From a virus: a stretch of DNA of 64,000 bases. Both the position numbers and the translations under genes were made by a program. The notes under the pieces were generated by a model. The model was given only the letters and a program-made list of their open reading frames with translations. It did not search any database and was not told the origin of the DNA. This document shows positions 26,030 to 63,618 of the stretch, piece by piece (positions within the stretch are counted from its first letter, which is position 1; each line of letters begins with the position of its first letter). The stretch is taken from the IMG/VR virus record IMGVR_UViG_3300034060_000856, positions 1 through 64,000 of that record; one strand, 5' to 3'.

Positions 26030-26585
26030 CATTCATTCATATCTTGTATTATTTTCCCCCATCTATTACATAAGCCCCCATCTTTTAATTAGTTCCCCCC
26101 ATTTAGTATGACCAATAAGGTACACAAATATAATAACACATAGAGTATAATGGTGAGGTGTTCTAAATTATATTCATAAACATATAATTGATTATAAATG
26201 AGATGAATTATATGAAAGAACATATAGTATTATATTTTGGTGTCGTAGTGAGAGGGATAATTAGTTGTATCACCATAGTAAGGTTTCACCTTATAACAAA
26301 GATACAAAATATATCCCATTTTTTACCACTTTAATTTCCTTTACTATGTGTTTATTTTTGTGTAGATTTAAAGGGTCAATTGTTTAAGGATCCCATAAAT
26401 GGGTCGTTGAAGATGTCTTTTTAATGATCTATAAGTGATCTACAAACAACATAAATGTCTATCTCCGGCCTCTGTACTCTAACGTACCTTTTTTACTGGG
26501 AAATAGGTATAGTAAAAAAAGTGGTCTTCTAGATATCAAAAACAAGGATAAATCGGTGTTCTATATATCAGGGGGACACATTATG

Positions 26586-26636
26586 GTGGGAGAAAGTGGT
26601 AAGTATATACACAATAAAAGTGGGAGAAAGTGGGGA
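26586..26636 (+). repeat. GTGG boxes in 10-bp phase (gtgggagaaagtgg x2)
   Basis: GTGG at 26586/26596 and 26620/26630; inverted pair near 26315-26332. Confidence 0.65.
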
Positions 26637-26723
26637 AGGGGATTGTGTGGTGTTTAACTCGTGACTGACATTTTGACAAAAACAAATAATTTAGTAGATA
26701 TTTATTAATAAAAACCCCATCTT

Positions 26724-27011
26724 ATGACATCAATAATGGACATCTTTATGGTAAACACAACAGAAAATGACGGTACCGTAACCGTGACATATTGTCACAA
26801 CTTGTACTCCGGGTCTTGTACATACAAATTAGTAACCCTTCAAGGAAAAAAATTAAGACAGGAGATTGAGTTATTAAGAAGTGTAGATATGGATGACATA
26901 CTGGAATGTCTATATAAAGAGGGGGAAATAACCGGACCAGATTGTTATGAGAGAATAAGGGGAGAAATTATAAATCATTCCCTCCACCAGGTTCAATCCC
27001 GGAATAAGTGA
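26724..27011 (+). CDS. hypothetical protein
   Basis: TATTTAT upstream; ATG ORF. Confidence 0.55.
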   Translation: MTSIMDIFMVNTTENDGTVTVTYCHNLYSGSCTYKLVTLQGKKLRQEIELLRSVDMDDILECLYKEGEITGPDCYERIRGEIINHSLHQVQSRNK

Positions 27012-27123
27012 TCTATTAAAGATCCGGCCAGAATAACTGTAAGTAATAACCATATCATTGTGAACATAAAAAAAGATAGGGGAAATATATAACTTTTTCA
27101 ATAGTGACGTATATTTATTATAA

Positions 27124-27269
27124 GAGTTCATTTTCCCCACAGTGTCGTAGACCGACACGTTAGTGAAGTAGGGAATTAGTTGTTCAAAGTCCTGGCGACT
27201 TGCAAAGATCAAGATGAATCTGAAACAACCTAATTTCTAATCCCCCTCAAATGGGTGGGGAATTTTTTT
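27124..27269 (+). ncRNA. putative structured ~145-nt RNA
   Basis: TATTTAT at 27112, no ORF; stems ttccccac/gtggggaa, gtgtcg/cgacac, tagggaattagttgttca/tgaaacaacctaatttcta, aagtc/gactt; ends in a T run. Confidence 0.65.
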
Positions 27270-27389
27270 ATGTCTTATATTTTTATAAGATGTTATGGAG
27301 TGTTCTAACCGACCACGCACGTGGGAGTCCACCCTCTGCGATCCCCAATACCTAGACCGAACCCGTCGTCGTTACTAACATAGACAATA

Positions 27390-27421
27390 CAAAGATACAA
27401 ATAATAATTGACATTAACAAA
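27390..27421 (-). promoter_or_regulatory. Bacteroidota promoter driving a GC-rich non-coding tract
   Basis: minus strand TTTG-N20-TATCTTTG. Confidence 0.7.
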
Positions 27422-27456
27422 GAATATGGTATTTATTTAATATAAAATACATTACT

Positions 27457-27909
27457 ATGGGATCCAGACTAGAAAACATTTCAGACGAACAACTAAAGAA
27501 GTATATGAAGTATGTATATAAAGTAATTGGGGCTTTTGAATTTGATGGTCCTGATCAATTATATTACTACGATAATATAACTACAATCTTCTCCCCCTTT
27601 GGTGGTAACATTAAAAGGTTGGATATTGAATACCTTTATTATGTGTTAAAGAACAACCCATTCTATTTTAAGGAGGGTTACCCAATTAATAGACCTACAC
27701 TTGTTGATCACGATTTACTTTATACAGTCAGGGAGTCACAGGTGGTTGAGATATATTATAACGGGGAGATTGAAACGTACATACCAGATGATCTGGAAGA
27801 AGAGTACCTCACCAAACTAACTGATGATCTGATTATTAACCCACGAACCTGGAACATAGACAGTGAGATTACTGATTCGGAATGGTTAAGTGATGATTGG
27901 GACTTTTAA
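27457..27909 (+). CDS. acidic protein, paralogue of 33696..34169
   Basis: S(R/K)LEN.SD..L.KY, RLDIEY..YVLK, W. Confidence 0.8.
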   Translation: MGSRLENISDEQLKKYMKYVYKVIGAFEFDGPDQLYYYDNITTIFSPFGGNIKRLDIEYLYYVLKNNPFYFKEGYPINRPTLVDHDLLYTVRESQVVEIYYNGEIETYIPDDLEEEYLTKLTDDLIINPRTWNIDSEITDSEWLSDDWDF

Positions 27910-27913
27910 TTAA

Positions 27914-28080
27914 GCCCTACCCTATATGACCCCTATGACCGGGGGGCGTATGATATAACCTGGGGGCCCCCTCCCGTATCCCCCCCATATATGACATTTT
28001 GACAGGTAGATAGGGGGCTCAATCCCAAAAGCGAAATATTCGTAAAAAAATTTCTGGAAAAAATTTTGGGAAAATCCGGT
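27914..28080. other. GC homopolymer/palindrome island (candidate origin or packaging site)
   Basis: G6, gggggccccc, C7, then A/T tracts, in an AT-rich genome. Confidence 0.4.
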
Positions 28081-28124
28081 TTATGTTTCCCCCAATTATT
28101 ATAACGTGGGTATATTTATCTTAT

Positions 28125-52401: not shown

Positions 52402-52646
52402 TGGAATTAGATGTAATATTGGGTTTAATGAGTAAATACACAAGGACACATAAAAATGAACTTGACGAAGAAGGTGAAGGTGCCCCAGAATCTGGTACAT
52501 CAGCACCGGCTGCGGCTAGTGGTTACCCAACAGTTACAAAATGGGAGACAGGTCTTACAAGAAGTGTTGCAAACACAATTGACGATAAAGTTACTTGGAA
52601 GTCTTTAAATAAAATAACGAGAGGAAAAGCAAATACATTATTATGA
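52401..52646 (+). CDS. small protein with a W...TR..AN dyad
   Basis: KWETGLTRSVAN / TW...ITRGKAN. Confidence 0.75.
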   Translation: MELDVILGLMSKYTRTHKNELDEEGEGAPESGTSAPAAASGYPTVTKWETGLTRSVANTIDDKVTWKSLNKITRGKANTLL

Positions 52647-53884
52647 GCAATTTAGATGATGTAATAAAGGATATATTGGGTAATATGTATTATGATGTTA
52701 GTGATACGTTGTCTGAACAAAAATTAGTTAAAGGGGTACAAACACCAGCTCTTACAAATTATTTAAATCAATCTAAAACAAACCCTTTATCGGTAGGAAT
52801 TGATCCACTTGGGATTTTTAATAAACAAAAAACCCCACAACCTTCTGTAGGTGTGTCTAATCAAATTGTTCAGTTTGACACTTGTGTTAGGGGGATGTCA
52901 TTTAGAATTGCCGCTAGAGGTTCAGATTTTGGAATCAAACCAATAACTTGGTTAAATAGAGACGAACCTTATAATCAAGATAAAGCACGTATGTTTTTTG
53001 GTACTGCGTGTAAATTTTGGTCAAAAATTCCAAGCACTAGTCAATTTGTTGAGCCTAGCGATCAATACTTCTTCAACCAGGAAACACTATTACCTTGTCA
53101 GGCAATATACAATAATGAAAGGTATACCGCTTATAATACGACTGATCAAGAAATACAAAAAAATAAAACAAAAAATAGATATAATACTTTTGTGTCAAAT
53201 TTACAAAAAATTGGACAAAAAAAATGGAATGAAATTTTAAAAAAAAGTAATGGACAAATTTTTAAATCTGGTAATGGTTGGTTTGAAGCAAATGGAAAAA
53301 AAATTCCCGCGAGAGAATACACATATGAAAAAAATTGTATAAGAATTACTGAAGATGTCTGTTTGAAATTAAGTTGGCAATCTTTACATTTAAATTCAAA
53401 TGTTGGGATGAAAACATTTGCAACAATAGATAGAAGAAAGGATAAAAACCGCCCAACAAAAATTAATTGGTGTGCTTGCACTGGAAAACAACTATCTTTT
53501 GATAATTTAACTTCAGAAAATAAAGCAGATTATTACGCCACAACTAATTTTAAATATCCTTGGGATTATACATACATTGGGTTTAAAAACTGCGCTGCTG
53601 GCAGTGGCGAATGTTTAATGGAACCACAAAAAATAGTCCCTGTTGATATTCAATTTAAATTACCGGGCAATGAAATAGGCTCTTTAGATTTTCAACAAAA
53701 ACAAAATTTACTTCAAAAAAATGAAGTGCCTATGGAAAATGCTATAAGATATAATTTATATGGTGTACCTTATGATGCTTCAGCTACTTTTGGTAAACAG
53801 CCGACAATTACACCAGAAGAAATTCAAAAAAGACAACAAGCTTTGGCTTTATTCGGTAATGGTGCGATAATACCTGGAACTTAA
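52643..53884 (+). CDS. large hypothetical (probable virion/internal) protein
   Basis: M.YD...TLSEQ leader-like N-terminus. Confidence 0.7.
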   Translation: MSNLDDVIKDILGNMYYDVSDTLSEQKLVKGVQTPALTNYLNQSKTNPLSVGIDPLGIFNKQKTPQPSVGVSNQIVQFDTCVRGMSFRIAARGSDFGIKPITWLNRDEPYNQDKARMFFGTACKFWSKIPSTSQFVEPSDQYFFNQETLLPCQAIYNNERYTAYNTTDQEIQKNKTKNRYNTFVSNLQKIGQKKWNEILKKSNGQIFKSGNGWFEANGKKIPAREYTYEKNCIRITEDVCLKLSWQSLHLNSNVGMKTFATIDRRKDKNRPTKINWCACTGKQLSFDNLTSENKADYYATTNFKYPWDYTYIGFKNCAAGSGECLMEPQKIVPVDIQFKLPGNEIGSLDFQQKQNLLQKNEVPMENAIRYNLYGVPYDASATFGKQPTITPEEIQKRQQALALFGNGAIIPGT

Positions 53885-53889
53885 AAATT

Positions 53890-56109
53890 ATGAAAAAAAT
53901 AGATAACATATTATTTGAAGAACTAAACCGAATTAAAGCCCTTTTAAACGAACAAAGTGTAAAAAGTGATAGACTAGGTACAACAGGACAATTTCAAAGT
54001 TTTGTTCCACAAACACCAAAATTTAAAGGTAAATTAGTTCCATCTTTATCACAAAATGAACAGTATAGATCAAAATTTTTGAAGGATCCTTGTGAACTTT
54101 CTGGTGTTGATGCGTTTTATAGACAAAAAATGGTTGACGTTCCTGGGTACTATTCCGATTTTAAATTAGGGGAATGTTCTGCTGTGGAGTATTTTGGAGG
54201 ACAAGAAACCGCACTAAACACTATGAATATTAATAGAAATATTTACCAAGACGAACAAGGTTATTTTTTTAAAGTAAATACAGAAGGTAGTACTAAAGAA
54301 ACACAATTTGACGTTTCAATATACTTACCGCAAGATGAGTTTTTTAAACAATTACAAGGCAAAGCTAAATCATTTATTACTTTTTCTACGTGTCCTGCGG
54401 CTTGTAAATACAAACAAGGTCAACAATTAAATGATGATGAACAAAGTTCTAGATATGTACTTTTGTATCAATTAGCTGATCCTAGTAAAGCCACAGAAAC
54501 TAGTATTGCAACGCCACAAGGAATACAAACGTTTGGTTTAGAAACTATAGATAGAGGTTGGCAGTTCTCAACCGTAAATGTTTTAGAATCTGGTTATTAC
54601 TCGGTTTCAAATCCAGAACAAATGGCAACTTCAGAAATAAAAGAATATACAAGCACTGATTATGGTGAAAATCAAGCTAGAAGTGAATTTGATATATGGT
54701 ATGATGGTACTGCCGGTACAATAGCTCAAATAGGTATTGCCGTATTATTATCATACGTAACAGCTGGCGCAGCCGCTCCATATCTTGCCGCAATTGAGTC
54801 ACAAGGCGCTAGAATTTTTGCAAATTTAGCTTTGCAAACAACCGTTGAGTTAACCGTTGCAATACCTGAAGCGGTATATCTTTACGGTAGAGGAATGAAC
54901 AGTAATGCGGCCTTTGTGATAATGCTATCATTAATTCCAGTTGTACAAGCAAAAGTATTTAAAGGTGAATTTGCGGATCCGGCAGCATTTGGTTATGTCC
55001 ACGAATTAACAAGAAGATATGGTACTGGTCAGTTTAAAACACCGGCGGATTTAAAAAGATATGTAAATAGTTTAGGAAAAACAGAAAAAGCATCTCTTGA
55101 AAAATTATTAAAAGGGACACAGGATGCTTTAATTGCTAATGGTGGAAAAATGGCACAAGAAGAAGTTGCTGCAGTTATGGGGCTTGTTTTAAAAAATTCA
55201 GATACTGGAATAAATAAAATTGGATTTAGTTTAGGTCGTGTTGGTTATGAACAAATTATAGCACAATATGTACCAACCGCAACTCAAAATTTGATTAAAA
55301 ATGCAACATCTTTATTCGGGACACTTGGGTCAACATTATTGATCCACCCAATTACGGCATACCTAATAAAAGATGCCGATTGGGTCAAAAATCCACAAAA
55401 AATAGATATTGCACAAAAAACTTTAGAAAAGATTTTTAATTCTCAAAAAGATAAAAATAAAGAAAAAGTACAAAAAGAAGTAAAAGGTTTACAGACAAAA
55501 ATAGAAAAAGCAGCATATAATCAAAATAAATCAGAGGTCATCCAACCTATTTACGATTTAATTTTTTATATAGACGATTTATTAAAAATTGCGGAAAATA
55601 AGATAGTACTTGGACAAAGTTTAGAAGTTTTAAAAACCCAGTATAAAAGTGTAATAATTGGTCAATTACTATCGGAAATTGCTAGGGCTATTTATGAAGA
55701 AATGAAAGCTAGTCAAGGGGCTTCTTCTCCGACTGCGAATTATTTAGACCAAAATGGGTTACCGGTATCAACAAAACCTTGGTTTGAGATTCAGATCGAA
55801 ACTTGTAAATCTGAAGAACTTTATAAAATGAAACAACTAAACTTTACAAATATTGATAATCCTAGTGATATTGAAATAAAAAGAGCTTGTTCATTTAGAG
55901 ATTTTATTAGGTCAACATATCCTAGTATGGCTAATTTAAAACATTGTGGTTTTTATGAAGAAGGGGAACAAGTTCCACCACCAAAATGGTTTTATATAAA
56001 AGATTGTGAATTTAAGAAAATTTGGAATGGGGTTGAAACTAAAACCAATAAAAGATATTGTGAATTGTGGCTAGAATCGTTAATTAACAAAAAAAAACAA
56101 AAAGTATAA
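53890..56109 (+). CDS. large probable virion/ejection protein with a hydrophobic region
   Basis: LFEELNRIKALLNEQ leader; Ala-rich TM-like helices. Confidence 0.7.
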   Translation: MKKIDNILFEELNRIKALLNEQSVKSDRLGTTGQFQSFVPQTPKFKGKLVPSLSQNEQYRSKFLKDPCELSGVDAFYRQKMVDVPGYYSDFKLGECSAVEYFGGQETALNTMNINRNIYQDEQGYFFKVNTEGSTKETQFDVSIYLPQDEFFKQLQGKAKSFITFSTCPAACKYKQGQQLNDDEQSSRYVLLYQLADPSKATETSIATPQGIQTFGLETIDRGWQFSTVNVLESGYYSVSNPEQMATSEIKEYTSTDYGENQARSEFDIWYDGTAGTIAQIGIAVLLSYVTAGAAAPYLAAIESQGARIFANLALQTTVELTVAIPEAVYLYGRGMNSNAAFVIMLSLIPVVQAKVFKGEFADPAAFGYVHELTRRYGTGQFKTPADLKRYVNSLGKTEKASLEKLLKGTQDALIANGGKMAQEEVAAVMGLVLKNSDTGINKIGFSLGRVGYEQIIAQYVPTATQNLIKNATSLFGTLGSTLLIHPITAYLIKDADWVKNPQKIDIAQKTLEKIFNSQKDKNKEKVQKEVKGLQTKIEKAAYNQNKSEVIQPIYDLIFYIDDLLKIAENKIVLGQSLEVLKTQYKSVIIGQLLSEIARAIYEEMKASQGASSPTANYLDQNGLPVSTKPWFEIQIETCKSEELYKMKQLNFTNIDNPSDIEIKRACSFRDFIRSTYPSMANLKHCGFYEEGEQVPPPKWFYIKDCEFKKIWNGVETKTNKRYCELWLESLINKKKQKV

Positions 56110-56190
56110 ATCAAAAAACATAAATAAAAAAAAATAGATTTTATTATATTTTTTTTATTTATTTAATATATTTATTAAAAAATGTAAAAT

Positions 56191-58218
56191 ATGAAAAATT
56201 CAAAACTACTCCTTGAGGAGGTTTTTAGAATGCGCGAACTTATGGGGTTTCCCTCAACTGATAAAGTCTTAAATTTATTAAAAGAAAGTGTTGGTGAAGG
56301 AATAAATGATTTTTGGAAATTTTTAGGGAAGGAATTAGCTTCTACTACTGACGAAGCAACAAAACTTACCAACATACAGAAGGCCTACGATGGTTTAGAT
56401 GCTTTAGACAAAAATACGATTGACGAGTTCATAAGAATTAAAAGAGGAGTTAGTGGTAGCTTTACAATCACCGATTTGATGAGTCTTTATAAAACTAAAG
56501 GATTACAACAATTAGTTAATGATATGGCAAATGATCAAGCACGATTACAACAATTACTTATAAAAAACCGTTTTAGCTTTAATATCCGTCCTGGTGAAAA
56601 TATTATTACTTCAACAACAAGACTTTTAAACGATCCAAATATCTCAGATGAGGTAAAAGGAATTTATCAAAAAACACAACAAATGGCAAAAAATCCTAGT
56701 GAAGTAGTTGGTGAATCAGAATTGGAGGCCTATTTAACCCAAATGGTTAAATTTAAAAATTCCCCAGAGTTCAAAAAGTTGAGTTCAGATGTACAAGACG
56801 ATATAAATAAAACGTATGACGAATTGAATGCCATACAAGTTAAGGCTGAAAAAGAAAGAATTGCTTTTGAAGCGTCGATTGAACCTGGTAGGTATGATGA
56901 CGATGTGTTAGCTGATGTTGACACAAATCTTGGTGATGATTTTGAAGCAGAACAAATCATAACAAGAGCTGAAGATGAAGCCGGTGATGCCGCAAGAGGT
57001 GCTGATGAGACTGGTGGTCGAACATATAGTATGCCAGAAGTAGAAGAAGAACGAATTGTAGAACTATCCATAGATGAAATAAGGACTCAAAAATACACCG
57101 GTATGGATGATATGTTATTAAAACAAGAATATGCAGTATTGATTGCAGGTATTAAAGGTAATAAAGTTAAATTCCCATTTGATAAAAACGTCCTAGCTCT
57201 ATTCAAAGAAATGGAACAAAGAGGTTTATTAAAAAATGATGATCTTGTTGGTAATATTTTAGCTAGTAACATCACAATGAACCCTAATGTTATTGCAATG
57301 CAAAAATTATTATCTGAATATGAAATATATAAAAAGAAAATGTTGAAAGACAATGTTAAAATTGTTGGTCCTGATGGTATCCTTAAAGATAGTGCACCAT
57401 TAGATTTTGTTGATTGGGCAATTAAAAATAAAAGAACAATACCAACTAATGTAAATTCACAAACTTTACTAAATAAAACTTCGGAGTATTTAGATTTTGT
57501 TTTTCTATGGCCACTTAGAAGACTCATTGGTAAAAGTACAGAGCAAGGAAGTTTCTCTAGAGCTTTACTTAATTTATTATTAGGATATGGGGGTGGAGCA
57601 TCTCTTGGTTGGGGTTTTTACGCCTCTTTAAAAAGTTATGGTCAAGCTGGAATTAGTTTTTTGGATTCAACACCTATCGCACAAAAACAAGCAATAAAAA
57701 CTGGTTTAAAAACTTACTTTACTTATGATAATCCTCAATTAATTATTAATGGTGAAACAGAGTCTATCTATGGTACAAGTATTGACCAAAGTAGACAAGC
57801 AAACATACAATTTAAAAATGCCACACCAACACCAATTTTTGATTTAGATATTAAACAAAGACAGTTTTCATTGGATCCTGGCATAGTAATAAAGGGTAAA
57901 ACATATAATGCATTTCTTATTAATTTTGGTGAAGGTAATTTTATTACACAAGGTTCAGAAAATTTTGGTAATAAAAATATATTAGTTGCAATAACCCAAT
58001 CAACTAAAACACCTACAACCACAACTCAAAAAGGAACAGAAGCAATTTTTAAAACCTCAAATTTCGCACAAGGTAAAACAATAACAGCATTTGTTTATAA
58101 AGGAATTGTAAATAACAAAGAACAATACGAAGTGAAATTCTATTCAAATACAGATCCTGATAAAAATGTAGTATCAAGAACATATTACTTTGATGGTACT
58201 AATTGGACAAAAAATTAA
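56191..58218 (+). CDS. large probable virion/ejection protein
   Basis: LLEEVFRMRELM...LLKE; TATTTAT upstream; Gly-rich hydrophobic segment. Confidence 0.7.
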   Translation: MKNSKLLLEEVFRMRELMGFPSTDKVLNLLKESVGEGINDFWKFLGKELASTTDEATKLTNIQKAYDGLDALDKNTIDEFIRIKRGVSGSFTITDLMSLYKTKGLQQLVNDMANDQARLQQLLIKNRFSFNIRPGENIITSTTRLLNDPNISDEVKGIYQKTQQMAKNPSEVVGESELEAYLTQMVKFKNSPEFKKLSSDVQDDINKTYDELNAIQVKAEKERIAFEASIEPGRYDDDVLADVDTNLGDDFEAEQIITRAEDEAGDAARGADETGGRTYSMPEVEEERIVELSIDEIRTQKYTGMDDMLLKQEYAVLIAGIKGNKVKFPFDKNVLALFKEMEQRGLLKNDDLVGNILASNITMNPNVIAMQKLLSEYEIYKKKMLKDNVKIVGPDGILKDSAPLDFVDWAIKNKRTIPTNVNSQTLLNKTSEYLDFVFLWPLRRLIGKSTEQGSFSRALLNLLLGYGGGASLGWGFYASLKSYGQAGISFLDSTPIAQKQAIKTGLKTYFTYDNPQLIINGETESIYGTSIDQSRQANIQFKNATPTPIFDLDIKQRQFSLDPGIVIKGKTYNAFLINFGEGNFITQGSENFGNKNILVAITQSTKTPTTTTQKGTEAIFKTSNFAQGKTITAFVYKGIVNNKEQYEVKFYSNTDPDKNVVSRTYYFDGTNWTKN

Positions 58219-58229
58219 TTTAAGTAAAA

Positions 58230-60248
58230 ATGGGTAAATGTAAAGGTAAAATAGTAGACTGTGATGGACCATATGATTGTTATGATCCGTCTGATGATGA
58301 ATGCTATAAAAATGTTGGTAATTCAAAACCACAACCAGTGCCAGATAATAATAAGAAAAAAACAACTCCGATACCAGCACCAGTACCAAAAAATGTCTGT
58401 AAGGATGACTACGGTATTGAAATATCTGATAAATTTTTCGATCCGGAAATGAAAACAGAAAGGGGTATTAAAGCTTTTAAAGACTTTTTAAAAAAATATT
58501 ATCCAGAGTTAGTAACAAGAATTGCAGGTAGTCCAGATAATTTAGATAAAGCTAAATATAATGATTGTATTGTTATTAAACTTTTCAATACATCTGATCC
58601 AGTAAGAAACAGAATTATTGGTGATTATGTGTATGATGATTGGAAGGACTTTGTTAATGGTTGGGAAAACTCAACAAGTAAAACACCTGAAGAATTTCAA
58701 ACCTGGTTGAGGCGTGAAAAAAAATCAAGTGGGAAAATAAACGCAACAAAAGAAGATTGGGAAAAAATAGTTGGCGAGGGTTGGTTTTCATCTGGAGGAA
58801 GAATATCAGAAATAAACAACAATACGGTTCTTCTATATAAGTACGATTCTCAAGATAATATACTTAAATTTGATGCTTTAACCGAAACAGGTGAACTTGA
58901 TTTTGAAAAGATCAAATCTGATTTAGAAGTTAAGGATGGTAGTATTAGTTATTATTATAATACATACCCAGTTGATTATACTGGTGATGTATTATACCCT
59001 AAAATTTCTGATGAATATCAACTCTATTTAGGTGAAACAGGTTCTTTAAGAACAAAGAAAACAGCAACTATTGGTCTTGAGAGTCCTGTTGTACTTAAAG
59101 AAAACTATTTTAGAAAATTTCTTTTAGAAAAAATAAGAGAAAAGAATGTATATAAGACTATTTTTGTTGAGGATATAAAAACACCACAGACATCACAACC
59201 AACTGTTATTGGAAAACGTGGTGGTACTAAAATCAATACTGAAACAAAAACAGAAACAGATGTTTTCGGGTTAAACAATCCAGAAAATAATTTGGTAACT
59301 ACCGAAGCAAAAAAGAATTTCATTAATACTAAAACACCAACGATTCAAATTCTAATTAATAGAGGTGCGAGATCAAATGACTTTTTAGCTTGGAATACAC
59401 TAGCTGCTTCATTGGATGCTACAGAATTGACATATAAAGATAAAGACGGTAAAGACATAACAATTGATGAAAATAATTCATTTAATGTTGGCGAACCAGC
59501 ACAAAAGGGTCAATATACTGAACAACCATTTTATAATGTTTTAAATATAACCGGTAACGAATTAAACACCGGAAAAATTTACACACCAATATCGGTTACA
59601 AATAAACAACCATATATAGATGTTAAAGTAAGTATTCCTTTTTGTAGAACACAATTAATTAATTATTTAAAAGACGGTTTAAGTCAAAATTATTCAGGTA
59701 ATCCCCAACAAAATTGGAATAGAAAATATGAAATCTGTGGTTGTAACCAAAGAGGTGGATATGAACCATTTAAATTCTATCGTAAATTACCACAATTCGG
59801 AAAAAATCAAACTGGTCGTGAAAAACTAGATGTAAGACCAAATTCTTCTGTCTTTACTCAAACTGACAAGATTATAAATCCGGAAACGGGAGAGGAAGAA
59901 GTTTTTGTTGGTGATGTTGGGGGATCAGCGTCTCCATTTATACCGGTACTCAATAAGAAATTAAATTGGGAAGAAATAAAAAACATACTTAGCGGTGGGA
60001 TTTATAAAAGTAGAGATGGTGTTAATAGAACAATTGATTCAGAATTAGTTATAGCTGGTTTTGACGAAGGTGGTGATTGTGTAAGTAATAAATTTATAAG
60101 TGCATACCCATATAAACCAACAACAGAAATACAAAAAGAATCATTTGATGAAAGAATTGATAATAAACTTTTAGAGTCAATTAAAGATAAAAATAAAAAA
60201 GAAAGTATAATAGAGAACGTTCTTAAAAATTTACTAAAAGATAAATAA
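58230..60248 (+). CDS. large hypothetical protein
   Basis: 672-aa ORF; internal and C-terminal (L/I)xE clusters. Confidence 0.7.
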   Translation: MGKCKGKIVDCDGPYDCYDPSDDECYKNVGNSKPQPVPDNNKKKTTPIPAPVPKNVCKDDYGIEISDKFFDPEMKTERGIKAFKDFLKKYYPELVTRIAGSPDNLDKAKYNDCIVIKLFNTSDPVRNRIIGDYVYDDWKDFVNGWENSTSKTPEEFQTWLRREKKSSGKINATKEDWEKIVGEGWFSSGGRISEINNNTVLLYKYDSQDNILKFDALTETGELDFEKIKSDLEVKDGSISYYYNTYPVDYTGDVLYPKISDEYQLYLGETGSLRTKKTATIGLESPVVLKENYFRKFLLEKIREKNVYKTIFVEDIKTPQTSQPTVIGKRGGTKINTETKTETDVFGLNNPENNLVTTEAKKNFINTKTPTIQILINRGARSNDFLAWNTLAASLDATELTYKDKDGKDITIDENNSFNVGEPAQKGQYTEQPFYNVLNITGNELNTGKIYTPISVTNKQPYIDVKVSIPFCRTQLINYLKDGLSQNYSGNPQQNWNRKYEICGCNQRGGYEPFKFYRKLPQFGKNQTGREKLDVRPNSSVFTQTDKIINPETGEEEVFVGDVGGSASPFIPVLNKKLNWEEIKNILSGGIYKSRDGVNRTIDSELVIAGFDEGGDCVSNKFISAYPYKPTTEIQKESFDERIDNKLLESIKDKNKKESIIENVLKNLLKDK

Positions 60249-60255
60249 TAAGAAA

Positions 60256-60354
60256 CTTGTTTGGTGTAGTTACCGAATAAGGATAAACCATCTAAAGAAA
60301 GGGAGGTGTTCAGTTTATCTAGCAGAATAGGAGCTTAGGTTCCTATTTTGTTTT
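60256..60354 (+). ncRNA. putative structured RNA with an anti-16S-tail segment, ending in a terminator
   Basis: 11-bp hairpin 60256-81; gataaac/gtttatc stem enclosing AGAAAGGGAGGTGTTC; terminator 60323-54. Confidence 0.55.
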
Positions 60355-60388
60355 AAGGTTGGGCTATATTTATTATTAAATATCTTTT

Positions 60389-60985
60389 ATGTTTTCAGTG
60401 GTAATACCAACAATGTGGCAAAGTGAATATCTTTTACTTATGCTACCAATATACGAAAATTGTGATTTAGTAGTGGAAGTCATATTGATAGATAATGCTT
60501 TTGAAAAAAAACCGAATTTAACAGATTTTAAAAAAATTAGATATTATTCAGAATTTAAAAATATTTTTGTAAACCCAGCATGGAATGTTGGTTACAAACT
60601 GGCTAAACACAAAATCATTTTAGCAAATGATGATATATTAATTGAAAATTTAACAGAAGTTTTACAAGAAATAAAAAATTCTAATTTTGATATTATAGGT
60701 GTTAGTTGGGAGCAAAGTAACACTTTAAGAATTGAAGAGATTGACGAATTTAAAAGATCCGGATTTGGATGTTTTATGTATGTAAAACATTATACAACAA
60801 TTCCAGAAAATTATCTAATATTTAGAGGTGATTATATTTTATTCCAAAATAACACTAGGAGGGGTGAATTATTCAATCCAAAGATAAAAGGTGAAATTGG
60901 TAAAACAAGAAAAAGCGATGAGACACTAAGAGAAATTTCATTAAATGATCTGTGTAAATATTCCCAAAACAATTTAAATGTATGA
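60389..60985 (+). CDS. GT-A (GT2-like) glycosyltransferase
   Basis: SVVIPT, ILIDN, N..VNPAWN.G, LANDD. Confidence 0.85.
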   Translation: MFSVVIPTMWQSEYLLLMLPIYENCDLVVEVILIDNAFEKKPNLTDFKKIRYYSEFKNIFVNPAWNVGYKLAKHKIILANDDILIENLTEVLQEIKNSNFDIIGVSWEQSNTLRIEEIDEFKRSGFGCFMYVKHYTTIPENYLIFRGDYILFQNNTRRGELFNPKIKGEIGKTRKSDETLREISLNDLCKYSQNNLNV

Positions 60986-61953
60986 ATAAAATTTTTGACA
61001 TAACGGTTGTAATCCCAACGTATAATAACATTGAATATCTTGAAGAAATGCTAGAGTCTATAAATAACTCTAAACAAAATTATACAGTTGAGGTTCTAGT
61101 TGGTATTGACGGTTGTAAAAAAACTTTGGACTTTGTTAAAACCAATTTTTTTGACGAGAATGTAAGGTTTCTTTTTTTTGAACAAAATGGTGGCCCGTAT
61201 ACAATAAAAAATACCCTAGTACAAAAAGCAAGTGCGGAAAAAATAATTTTTTTTGATTCTGATGATTTAATGTCAGAAAATTTAATACCAAAAATAATAA
61301 AGACATTGGATTTGTTTAAGATTTGTAAATTTCGTTATAAAAACTTTATTTATAATAAAACTGATAATTATAAACAATCGGTTTCATATGGTGAAGGTGT
61401 TTTTGGTATAACAAAAAGTTTATTTTTAGAAATGAATGGGTTTGAGCCTTGGATTTGTGCTGCAGATAGTGATTTTTGGGGTAGGGTATATAAATCAAAT
61501 GTAAAAGCTAGATTTATAAATGAAATATTAATGCTTCGCAGAATACATAATAATCAATTAACAAAAAGAAATGATACTGGAATGCGATCAACTTTGCGAG
61601 CTTATTATTGGAAATTAAGTAAGTCAAAAAGAGGAAATGGTAACCCATCTTTTTTGAGTGTTCGAAAATACTTTGAAATCCACGATGTTAATTCAGAAAG
61701 ATTAAAATTTGAACAAATTAGTATTTTAAGAAAAAAGGAAGTTCTAATTGAGAGTGTAAAATCGGTATTAATGTCTAACAATTTAATTGTTCCACCATCG
61801 AAACCAAAAAAACAACCTCCAGTCGAGTTAAACTACGATCTTGTAAATAAGTTAATGATAAAAAAATTAAATCAAACTCAAGAACAAGAAAAAAAACCAA
61901 GTTTAATCCCAGATAGACAAAATCTTTTTGATTTAAAAAGAAAAAAGGTTTGA
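60982..61953 (+). CDS. GT2 glycosyltransferase
   Basis: VVIPTYN, IDG, N.GPY...N, FFDSDD, D.DF..R, R.H..Q. Confidence 0.9.
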   Translation: MNKIFDITVVIPTYNNIEYLEEMLESINNSKQNYTVEVLVGIDGCKKTLDFVKTNFFDENVRFLFFEQNGGPYTIKNTLVQKASAEKIIFFDSDDLMSENLIPKIIKTLDLFKICKFRYKNFIYNKTDNYKQSVSYGEGVFGITKSLFLEMNGFEPWICAADSDFWGRVYKSNVKARFINEILMLRRIHNNQLTKRNDTGMRSTLRAYYWKLSKSKRGNGNPSFLSVRKYFEIHDVNSERLKFEQISILRKKEVLIESVKSVLMSNNLIVPPSKPKKQPPVELNYDLVNKLMIKKLNQTQEQEKKPSLIPDRQNLFDLKRKKV

Positions 61954-61993
61954 TATATTATATAATATTTTTTATCTTTATAAAAAAGAAAAT

Positions 61994-62173
61994 ATGTACG
62001 TAATAGTTAAACACATCAAATTAGAGGAAAGTAAAAAAAGAGTTCCTGTTATCTTACTTAATACTCAAAGTGAAATTTGGGAATTTGACACAGAAAAAGA
62101 GGCTGAAAAAATGAGAGAAGTTTTTGAATTAAATTCAGATTCGGGACATATTTACGAAATTAAAAGGATTTAA
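61994..62173 (+). CDS. small protein
   Basis: 59-aa ATG ORF. Confidence 0.6.
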   Translation: MYVIVKHIKLEESKKRVPVILLNTQSEIWEFDTEKEAEKMREVFELNSDSGHIYEIKRI

Positions 62174-62305
62174 TAAAAATGTTATACTATGGAAGAAATA
62201 CTTGAAGAAATCCATTTTGAGTTTGTTGATTCGGACGATTTCATACATTTTATAAAATTATTGGTAGAATTACAACAAACTGAAGATAACTGATATTTAT
62301 TTTAT

Positions 62306-62737
62306 ATGAAAGTAAGATTAACTGAATCAGAATTAGTTTCTTTGATAGAAAAAATCATCAAAGAAGAAAGAACAACTATGGATGATATTAAATACATACA
62401 TCCAGAGACAGGGAAAGAATGTCTTATAAAAGTTGCAAAACACAAATATACAAATAGGTTTGGTGCTGAATATGGATCTATTTTGGTTTGTGATGAATAT
62501 GGTGATGGTGAATATATGACCGTTGCCGAATTACCAATTAATGGTTCTAGTTTTGAAGAGGTGAGTGATATGATATGTAATAATCTTGAACGAGTATTTG
62601 AGATTTTAAACAAAATGTTAGCTGGCGAAAGTGAAGAAATAACAGAAGATTATAGTAAATACAGTAAATGGGATGTTATAGACCAGCCTATTGTTTGTTC
62701 AGGTAGACCAAAAAGGAAAAGAAGTTGGGAAGCTTAG
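62306..62737 (+). CDS. leader-bearing protein
   Basis: MKVRLTESELVSLIEKIIKEE. Confidence 0.8.
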   Translation: MKVRLTESELVSLIEKIIKEERTTMDDIKYIHPETGKECLIKVAKHKYTNRFGAEYGSILVCDEYGDGEYMTVAELPINGSSFEEVSDMICNNLERVFEILNKMLAGESEEITEDYSKYSKWDVIDQPIVCSGRPKRKRSWEA

Positions 62738-63618
62738 TTAATGACAATTAATTTTTGTTTTTCTTTATAAACTAAACAACCAAAAATTCGTTCCATTGCA
62801 TGATTTGGTGATGGTTCGTAAACATAACCACTTGGAAGTGTTGTTAATATTTTATCTATATTATTTGGGGTTAAATATTTTTTTAAAACACTGTTTCTAA
62901 CCCAGAAAACGGTACCACCAACAAAAAAACAATTATTGTGGTTATTAGGTGTGTTAAAAATTCTAAAAATAGAGTTCATTTCTTTAATATTTGTTGAAAA
63001 ATTATTATATTGTTTAAATCCAACCATACCACATTCTGGATTATGTTTAAATTCATTTAAAATATTATTAACTTTTAGTTCGTTTAATAATACACCATCC
63101 ATTAAACGTTTAAACCAACCATTACCTGAATTTTTTGCTGCAACAATACCTTTATTTAAGACACCTCTTGACGGTGTTTGAGTACTACCCAAACCAGCTT
63201 TAGTGTGTATTTTTAATATTAAATCAGTTTTTGGATCTACGTGTTTATAGGTATATAAAAAACCACCAATATCAACACCTTTATTTGGTGAAGATATTAT
63301 TTTAGCGTTTGGTTTAAACTTTTTTATTCTATCCTCAATCAATATATTATTTGTATACTTTCTCTTTTCTTTAATTCCGTGTTTTAAATAGTGTCTAATA
63401 GCTAGAGGTTCTGTTTTAACACCATTTGGTATAAGGTCTGGATTTAAACTTGTGTATTTGGACCAGATAAAATCTGCCGGAAGATTATTGTCAAATTGTG
63501 TTTCTTTTATTGGTAAATTCACATATAAATCATATTCTACTTTTAAATTATTCAAATAAGGTATAATTTCTTCCCACATATTTGTATGATATAAGTGAAT
63601 ACAGACAGCAATTTTCAT
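62734..63618 (-). CDS. RgpF-family rhamnan synthesis glycosyltransferase
   Basis: HLYH..W, N.G.DIGGF, KIHTK, GGT.FW.R, HAMER.FG; inserted Y...NPDL...HY..HG..E.R module. Confidence 0.85.
   Translation of the reverse strand: MKIAVCIHLYHTNMWEEIIPYLNNLKVEYDLYVNLPIKETQFDNNLPADFIWSKYTSLNPDLIPNGVKTEPLAIRHYLKHGIKEKRKYTNNILIEDRIKKFKPNAKIISSPNKGVDIGGFLYTYKHVDPKTDLILKIHTKAGLGSTQTPSRGVLNKGIVAAKNSGNGWFKRLMDGVLLNELKVNNILNEFKHNPECGMVGFKQYNNFSTNIKEMNSIFRIFNTPNNHNNCFFVGGTVFWVRNSVLKKYLTPNNIDKILTTLPSGYVYEPSPNHAMERIFGCLVYKEKQKLIVIN

Follow-up and report, generated by a model that had tools for sequence, protein, structure and literature searches.

The window analyzed here, the whole 64,000-nucleotide stretch presented above, corresponds to the initial 64 kb of an IMG/VR virus record from lake water that is 98.7 kb long and has a G+C content of 30.5%. 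CheckV places the completeness of the record at 34%, which implies a genome of ∼290 kb. On the plus strand, a 140-nt gap separates an ORF at 58230–60248 from the next one at 60389–60985 (198 aa), and within this gap lies the motif AGAAAGGGAGGTGTTC, at exactly the position where an earlier note on this DNA had put it (60296–60311, plus strand), 48 nt 3′ of the stop codon and 11 nt 5′ of a terminator stem. The features of the locus are as follows.

58230–60248, plus strand: upstream gene, an ORF of 672 aa, whose stop codon TAA is followed by a second TAA
60256–60281, plus strand: hairpin 1, an 11-bp stem with the loop UAGU, from the predicted fold
60283–60289, plus strand: AUAAACC, a motif just 3′ of hairpin 1 that is invariant in our alignment of relatives (alignment A1)
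60296–60311, plus strand: extended Shine–Dalgarno (SD)-like core AGAAAGGGAGGUGUUC, complementary to the 16S 3′ tail GAACACCUCCUUUCU
60317–60322, plus strand: AUCUAG (conserved as AUCUA(A/G)), invariant in alignment A1
60322–60354, plus strand: intrinsic terminator, with a 13-bp stem at 60322–60351, a UUAG loop, and the U-run UUUUGUUUU
60365–60373, plus strand: TATATTTAT, a promoter-like box that belongs to the next gene (start codon ATG, 60389) and marks the end of the unit

The 672-aa gene is the last in an array of large proteins with a common N-terminal motif. In the window, this array spans 52643–60248 on the plus strand and comprises four large proteins of 413, 739, 675, and 672 aa, none of which matched Pfam or PHROG; its counterparts in relatives have in common an N-terminal motif of the type E..R(I/M)..LMG or E.EK..IL..(H/Y). 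A peptide-pattern search of viral contigs confirmed no relatives of the 672-aa protein, and BLASTN of 58230–61953 against GenBank phages gave no match. We saw no conserved promoter motif between the stop codon and hairpin 1. The transcript of the 672-aa gene, a late-type mRNA, probably carries the element as its 3′ end.

On the 3′ side of the element (60389–63618) lies a glycan-synthesis cluster that includes a GT2 glycosyltransferase (60982–61953) and an RgpF-like protein (62734–63618, minus strand); in family-1 relatives, the corresponding place is occupied by GT and RgpF-like genes in a different arrangement. A TATTTAT box stands 4 to 20 nt before a large share of ATGs, for example at 60365–60373 and 56175–56185, suggesting that 5′ leaders are very short or absent. 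The box also lies directly 3′ of the terminator in relatives and is not part of the RNA. Elsewhere in the window, the stretch at 26050–28100 (plus strand) holds few ORFs, with CCCCCAUCU-type words repeated at 26056, 26075, and 26095 and a palindrome-like run, GGGGGCCCCCUCCC, at 27961–27985.

The predicted fold of 60245–60395 contains three hairpins, with a minimum free energy of −42.7 kcal/mol (z = −4.1) that none of 200 shuffles equaled. Three consecutive hairpins had been described in the earlier note; hairpin 1 and the terminator are real, but the middle one amounts to a weak helix of 6 bp, formed around the motif between ACC.UCU and GGAGGU, and is not conserved as such. The central segment, in the order AUAAACC, UAAAGAAAGGGAGGUGUUC, and AUCUAG, is unstructured or weakly structured, and the core, with a predicted unpaired probability of ∼0.5, is not clearly exposed. 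RNAalifold also draws a small AGGU:AUCU helix, which never varies and hence gives no evidence for or against itself. At 60322–60354, a G+C-containing hairpin is followed by a U-run on the transcribed strand, as expected of an intrinsic terminator. We also confirmed that no start codon intervenes before the terminator: none of ATG, GTG, and TTG occurs at a usable distance, and the sole GTG overlaps the motif itself. Rfam 15 gave no match in the window at gathering thresholds and chance-level matches only (E of 1 or more) in 60150–60450.

Searching relatives for the motif had been suggested at the outset. An exact scan of IMG/VR with 14 bases of the motif returned 98 loci, 11 of which were low-G+C contigs with the same architecture. 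Subsequent scans used the flanks as anchors and left the core free, first in part and then entirely (AUAAACC was one of the anchors in scans of this kind), and together with a metagenome collection they brought the total to ∼55 homologous loci from lake phages in IMG/VR and JGI metagenome contigs. All have the same architecture, their flanks and stems have diverged, and a GGAGG-type core and U(G/A)UUC are kept. The members begin with a hairpin with G-U-A at its top, followed by (G/C)AUAAACC, 0 to 4 nt, UAAAGAAA, and the G-rich core; then come U(G/A)UUC(C), 2 to 5 nt, AUCUA(A/G), and the terminator, often with a GNRA or UUCG loop. In relatives, the element always lies directly 3′ of the last gene of an array like that in the window.

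Hairpin 1 and the terminator form in all 24 distinct relatives despite sequence differences. The G-U-A at the top of hairpin 1 is invariant, and compensatory changes occur at all five scorable pairs of this hairpin and at 7 of 10 terminator pairs, whose loops in relatives are GNRA or UUCG. In a 16-sequence alignment, 92.4% of cells paired, compared with 70% in shuffles, and the covariation score was 0.608 compared with 0.217 in shuffles; none of 500 shuffles scored as high, and sliding the partners abolished the signal. Two further pairings were tried and rejected: an antiterminator between the core and the terminator 3′ strand (the upper stems vary freely and the core is fixed, leaving no covariation) and a pseudoknot between the GUAG loop and AUCUA, where the substitutions do not compensate one another. 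Contigs from four lake metagenomes, when their depths are summed, cover the element to several times the depth of its flanks; they break at the element and run on into different flanks, indicating that several co-occurring phages share it. We conclude from these sequence comparisons that the element is a real, conserved, and unannotated phage RNA, not a chance occurrence.

We then compared the core with 16S tails read from 401 Bacteroidota genomes, of which 158 matched. Three tail variants occur in these real genomes, GGAACACCUCCUUUCU, GGAAUACCUCCUUU(C/U)U, and GGAUCACCUCCUUUCU. RNAduplex pairs the window element with GGAACACCUCCUUUCU over 15 bp with one bulged G, or over 13 contiguous bp with one G-U, in agreement with the initial estimate of ∼13 contiguous bp or 15 with one bulge. 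The predicted energy is −22.6 kcal/mol, which 1 of 2000 shuffles reached (shuffle mean −6.8, SD 2.5). Among 197,344 scanning windows on both strands of the 98.7-kb record, the element is the strongest tail-complementary site. It is also the top site in a complete 322-kb relative (G423), by a margin of 5.6 kcal/mol. In another relative (G418), the element ranks fourth; two of the higher-ranked sites were examined, and one has stops in all three frames on its own strand and is probably antisense to a gene, while the other is within an ORF. On the same scale, a family 2 member scored −26.2 and the G423 element −27.2. The complement to the tail is imperfect in every one of the ∼55 members, each of which has an extra G or a G-U wobble.

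As a reference, we located rpsU in five Bacteroidota genomes and scored each leader against the tail of its own genome. Four leaders gave −22.0, −22.2, −17.6, and −24.8, and the fifth had no strong SD; at −22.6, compared with −17.6 to −24.8, the window element is as strong as a host rpsU SD. We also searched for an 18-mer in 185,579 species, each represented by a single genome. None of the 14 matches is an rpsU leader or 16S sequence from Bacteroidota, and the search thus yielded no host whose tail has CCUCCC. The single Bacteroidota match (Lacibacter) is a chance match.

The earlier note had staked its reading on conservation of the core. The core is indeed kept, but its GGAGG is not fixed at the A: in many members the run consists of G throughout, with pairing kept through G-U. 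Because only pyrimidines occur in the tail from C1535 onward, and G can pair with either of them, all the G-run variants retain the pairing. The commonest core variant, GGGAGGUGUUC, is that of the window; the others are GGGGAGGUGUUC, GGGGGGUGUUC, GGGGGGGGUGUUCC, GGGGGUAUUCC, GGGGGGUAUUC, and GGGGGGUGUUU, and two variants, each from a single contig, weaken the pairing (GGGAGAUGUUC, −16.1; GGGGGGGCGUUC, −18.9). In lake samples, the purine run is polymorphic through A/G transitions, and the length of the G-run also varies among members. The other variable position is the G or A of U(G/A)UUC, opposite the C/U that separates GGAACACC from GGAAUACC tails, both of which exist in Bacteroidota. The best scores came from UGUUC cores on GGAACACC tails and UAUUCC cores on GGAAUACC tails, the latter reaching −27.2 with 16 contiguous pairs. 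Host rpsU leaders have a GGUGU/GGUAU switch that likewise follows the tail of each genome, with GGAGGUGU in two ACA-tail genomes and GGAGGUAUU in one AUA-tail genome. The covariation with host tails that had been proposed as a check thus appears as core variants that fit natural tails, an indirect fit in that the tails are those of sampled Bacteroidota rather than of identified phage hosts.

The wider genome is one in which SDs are nearly absent. No SD-like motif lies upstream of 125 of the 129 ORFs in the 98.7-kb record, which largely bears out the initial claim that no other gene here has an SD, and GGAGG occurs 51 times on the plus strand. We also found a phage bS21 gene, another check that had been proposed. 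It and two RNA genes lie outside the window.

Record 95143–95328 (∼95.2 kb), minus strand: bS21 gene, 61 aa (PF01165, 36 bits)
Record 75056–75462, plus strand: GOLLD RNA (RF02032, 314 bits)
Record 75794–76201, minus strand: tmRNA

The phage bS21 gene is without an SD, and A/T-rich sequence alone precedes its ATG. A tyrosine near the C terminus of the protein, in KAIYRQK, is possibly the equivalent of Tyr54 in Flavobacterium johnsoniae bS21. At its 5′ end, the GOLLD RNA of the record has a conserved extension of ∼450 nt, with which it spans record 74600–75462 (plus strand). A GTTCTTTGAAA box precedes this extension, within which lie GGGCCGUGUAUAGUCC and a GNRA hairpin. The record also encodes several tRNAs outside the window. 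Five Rfam tRNA matches fall in record 64669–66269; three of these span 106 to 126 nt without an ARAGORN call and may be tRNA genes with insertions or introns.

Counting this record, bS21 was found in 19 of 30 element-bearing records. Of the six that are at least 90% complete, four have bS21 and all six have GOLLD; two near-complete relatives had no bS21 match over threshold. The co-occurrence of the element and bS21 may simply reflect shared ancestry. Phage bS21 clades with genomes of ∼300 kb infect Bacteroidota in lakes (PMC9723584), and the size, lake habitat, and opposite-strand bS21 of the present record agree with those clades of Chen et al. (PMC9723584). We take the element-bearing phages to be a clade of freshwater Bacteroidota phages with genomes of roughly 290 kb, in which the element is a conserved RNA that does not code for protein.

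The anti-SD of Flavobacteriales ribosomes lies buried under bS21, bS18, and bS6 (PMC7797042, PMC9976891). The only gene there with an extended SD is rpsU, which is best read by ribosomes lacking bS21 (PMC9976891), and cryo-EM indicates that a 13-bp SD–anti-SD helix sterically excludes bS21 (PMC13000457). Against this background, we propose, with roughly even confidence, that the element reproduces the extended SD of rpsU without its start codon and binds anti-SD tails that have been liberated. Its central segment would pair over 13 to 16 nt with the host 16S 3′ tail, which would be free only on subunits without bS21, and the long helix could not coexist with bS21. The element would probably dock in this way onto host ribosomes without being translated, and with no start codon to follow, the bound subunits would be occupied unproductively. 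By competing with the rpsU mRNA of the host, the RNA would blunt the host bS21 feedback; alternatively, it might help to drive host bS21 off the ribosome. In either case, the phage would supply its own bS21 from a gene without an SD. We would put the chances that 16S is the partner, and that binding would have these consequences, at about one in two. The earlier note had already read the element as an RNA that binds 30S subunits and acts as a sponge, a 3′ translational enhancer, or an mRNA stabilizer, any of which the present comparisons would allow. Conservation, the phage bS21, the tail-matched variants, and the rpsU-level energy speak for that reading, while the rival partner in the GOLLD leader described below, the variable A, and a core that is not clearly exposed temper it, so that the reading is partly supported.

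The rival partner emerged from two sister phages. In G418, the GOLLD leader contains a 16-nt perfect complement of that phage's own element, with GGGGGG opposite CCCCCC, and in G419 a 21-nt complement with one G-U; the two same-genome pairs of core and leader match GGGGGG with CCCCCC and GGGGGG with CCUCCC. The position of this segment is as follows.

G418:C1:19252–19267, minus strand: tail look-alike in the GOLLD leader; also at L437:1490–1520 (G419) and in L580–L616

In both phages the complement sits ∼430 nt upstream of the Rfam-modeled GOLLD domain, ∼40 to 60 nt into the GOLLD 5′ extension, in the variable first part of that extension and 3′ of the conserved GTTCTTTGAAA box. In all, 37 viral contigs have such leaders, which read AACACCUCCCUUUCUUUAA or AACCCCCCUUUCUUUAA; the 25 leader-bearing records searched for same-genome covariation beyond G418 and G419 are fragments holding the leader alone. 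The segment is a look-alike of the 16S tail plus one extra C that matches the extra G of the element, and its pairing reaches into the conserved UUAAAG, with which 16S cannot pair; in G418 and G419, the leader therefore explains the extra G and UUAAAG better than 16S does. Since the same face is complementary to the GOLLD leader in two sister phages, the partner may not be 16S alone, and the true partner could be another phage RNA carrying a 16S-tail look-alike, such as the GOLLD 5′ leader, so that the SD likeness is a by-product and ribosomes are not the target. We consider this, the main rival reading, unlikely. No complement of at least 11 nt to the core was found in the record, its own GOLLD leader included, or in G420 (a 99%-complete family-1 genome) or G423 (complete), and the core, with its extra G, is kept in these partner-less lineages. 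A second complementary RNA in the same genome, as in pairs of small RNAs and anti-small RNAs, was found in G418 and G419 and not in the record. Moreover, the UGUUC/UAUUCC switch fits the 16S tail variants, and the leader's own likeness to the 16S tail leads back to the ribosome. The GOLLD leader may also belong to the same system, in which it would titrate the decoy. Scanning for partners with G-U allowed gave T-rich noise only, and a 14-nt complement of GGGAUAAACCAUCU occurs at G420:183717. Other candidate sites were rejected: that in G003 is an ordinary bidirectional terminator, and those in G009, G014, and G015 do not resemble separate RNA genes, the G014 site being inside an ORF.

The element could also act in cis, as a 3′-end module of hairpin, protein-binding strand, and terminator that sets mRNA stability or termination, its core being read by a protein and not by rRNA. 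Its constant place directly after the last array gene, the strong terminator at its end, the lack of any recognized promoter of its own, and the invariant loop GUA, AUAAACC, and AUCUA, which 16S pairing does not explain, all fit such a module. We nevertheless find it improbable, because it leaves unexplained the top rank of the core among 16S-tail complements across whole genomes, the restriction of substitutions to those that keep the pairing, and the way in which the one variable position tracks a natural tail variant. Ribosomes might otherwise be parked in cis by a start-stop arrangement, in which the SD would set AUC in the P site with UAG or UAA next, leading to immediate initiation and termination, for a purpose such as stabilizing the 3′ end or influencing the terminator. 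AUCUA(A/G) lies 5 to 7 nt past the base that would pair with A1532, roughly the place of the rpsU AUG (7 to 9 nt in host rpsU leaders), and AUCUAG read as codons is AUC and then a stop; across members, the stop varies between UAA and UAG and the AUC is fixed. However, AUC is a very poor start codon, one member has AUCUAU and thus no stop, and the same bases can form the small AGGU:AUCU helix instead. The spacing also differs by single bases, which argues that the stretch is not coding, and we regard both the start-stop arrangement and any such parking purpose as highly unlikely. Finally, an SD-like word might have arisen by chance in the region of an ordinary terminator, or the core might be the functionless remnant of an rpsU leader that was captured and is decaying. 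The coding strand is rich in purine-rich words (the 51 GGAGG noted above), and the spacer after the core loosely resembles the CUAAAU of host rpsU leaders. Conservation at ∼55 loci with diverged flanks contradicts this explanation, as do the single shuffle in 2000 at the observed energy and the top rank of the site in whole genomes, and we judge it extremely improbable.

If the element is a start-less copy of the rpsU extended SD, it could conceivably do more than occupy subunits. The authors of PMC9976891 speculated that bS21-encoding phages encode factors aiding bS21 exchange. We entertain, as a tentative and rather doubtful extension, a trans-acting RNA that remodels host ribosomes, with the sister-phage GOLLD leader as a co-evolved 16S-tail look-alike that titrates it. 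In such a scheme, the long helix would pry host bS21 off or hold the platform pocket open, the host rpsU feedback loop would be starved, and phage bS21 would take over the ribosome pool; if true, this would be the first link between GOLLD and a molecular function. Many aquatic phages carry bS21, which raises the matter of how their copy could take the place of that of the host. To our knowledge, the anti-SD of Bacteroidia has one job, which is to sense bS21 on the ribosome. A protein-less phage RNA that copies the pocket-opening signal lends itself to simple experiments in the existing F. johnsoniae in vitro system, and the link to the GOLLD leader in sister phages gives a second testable lead on a long-unexplained RNA. 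Our literature search found no paper tying an ORF-less SD RNA, or GOLLD, to bS21 phages.

Among known systems, the STAB-SD of the Bacillus thuringiensis cryIIIA mRNA starts no translation and is thought to pair with the 16S 3′ end (PMC4113751). Both it and the element are SD-like and have no associated start codon. They differ in that the STAB-SD is in a 5′ untranslated region, where it guards against 5′ decay, whereas the element is at a 3′ end; the ribosomes of its host read SDs freely, whereas the anti-SD of the element's host is normally sequestered; and the complementarity of the element is much longer. RNA sponges, of which the prophage-encoded AgvB acting against GcvB is an example, provide another comparison. 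Like the anti-small RNAs, the element is a phage RNA that would titrate a host RNA face by base pairing, but its proposed target is rRNA on the subunit whereas theirs is a regulatory small RNA, and a second complementary phage RNA occurs in the sister phages and was not found in this genome.

The closest likeness is to the extended SD of Bacteroidia rpsU (PMC7797042, PMC9976891, PMC13000457, PMC13000453). The two form a helix of the same 13-bp class with nearly the whole free 16S tail, their energies fall in the same range on one scale, the GGUGU/GGUAU variation of the leaders is likewise matched to the tail, and in both cases SDs are otherwise virtually absent from the system. The differences lie in what surrounds the pairing. 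The element is phage-encoded, has no start codon or ORF, and stands after a gene and before a terminator, whereas the SD of rpsU is in a 5′ leader; its pairing register is shifted toward 1530–1542, and the host leaders do not have its GUA loop, AUAAACC, and AUCUA motifs. An rpsU-type extended SD makes 9 to 13 or more consecutive bp at less than −13 kcal/mol, and the element does so as well. Such an SD also has a start codon ∼7 nt downstream that opens the bS21 frame, where the element has AUC and UAG with the terminator next, and it lies directly upstream of the bS21 gene, which here is 35 kb away on the other strand. The element thus pairs like the rpsU extended SD yet falls outside that class.
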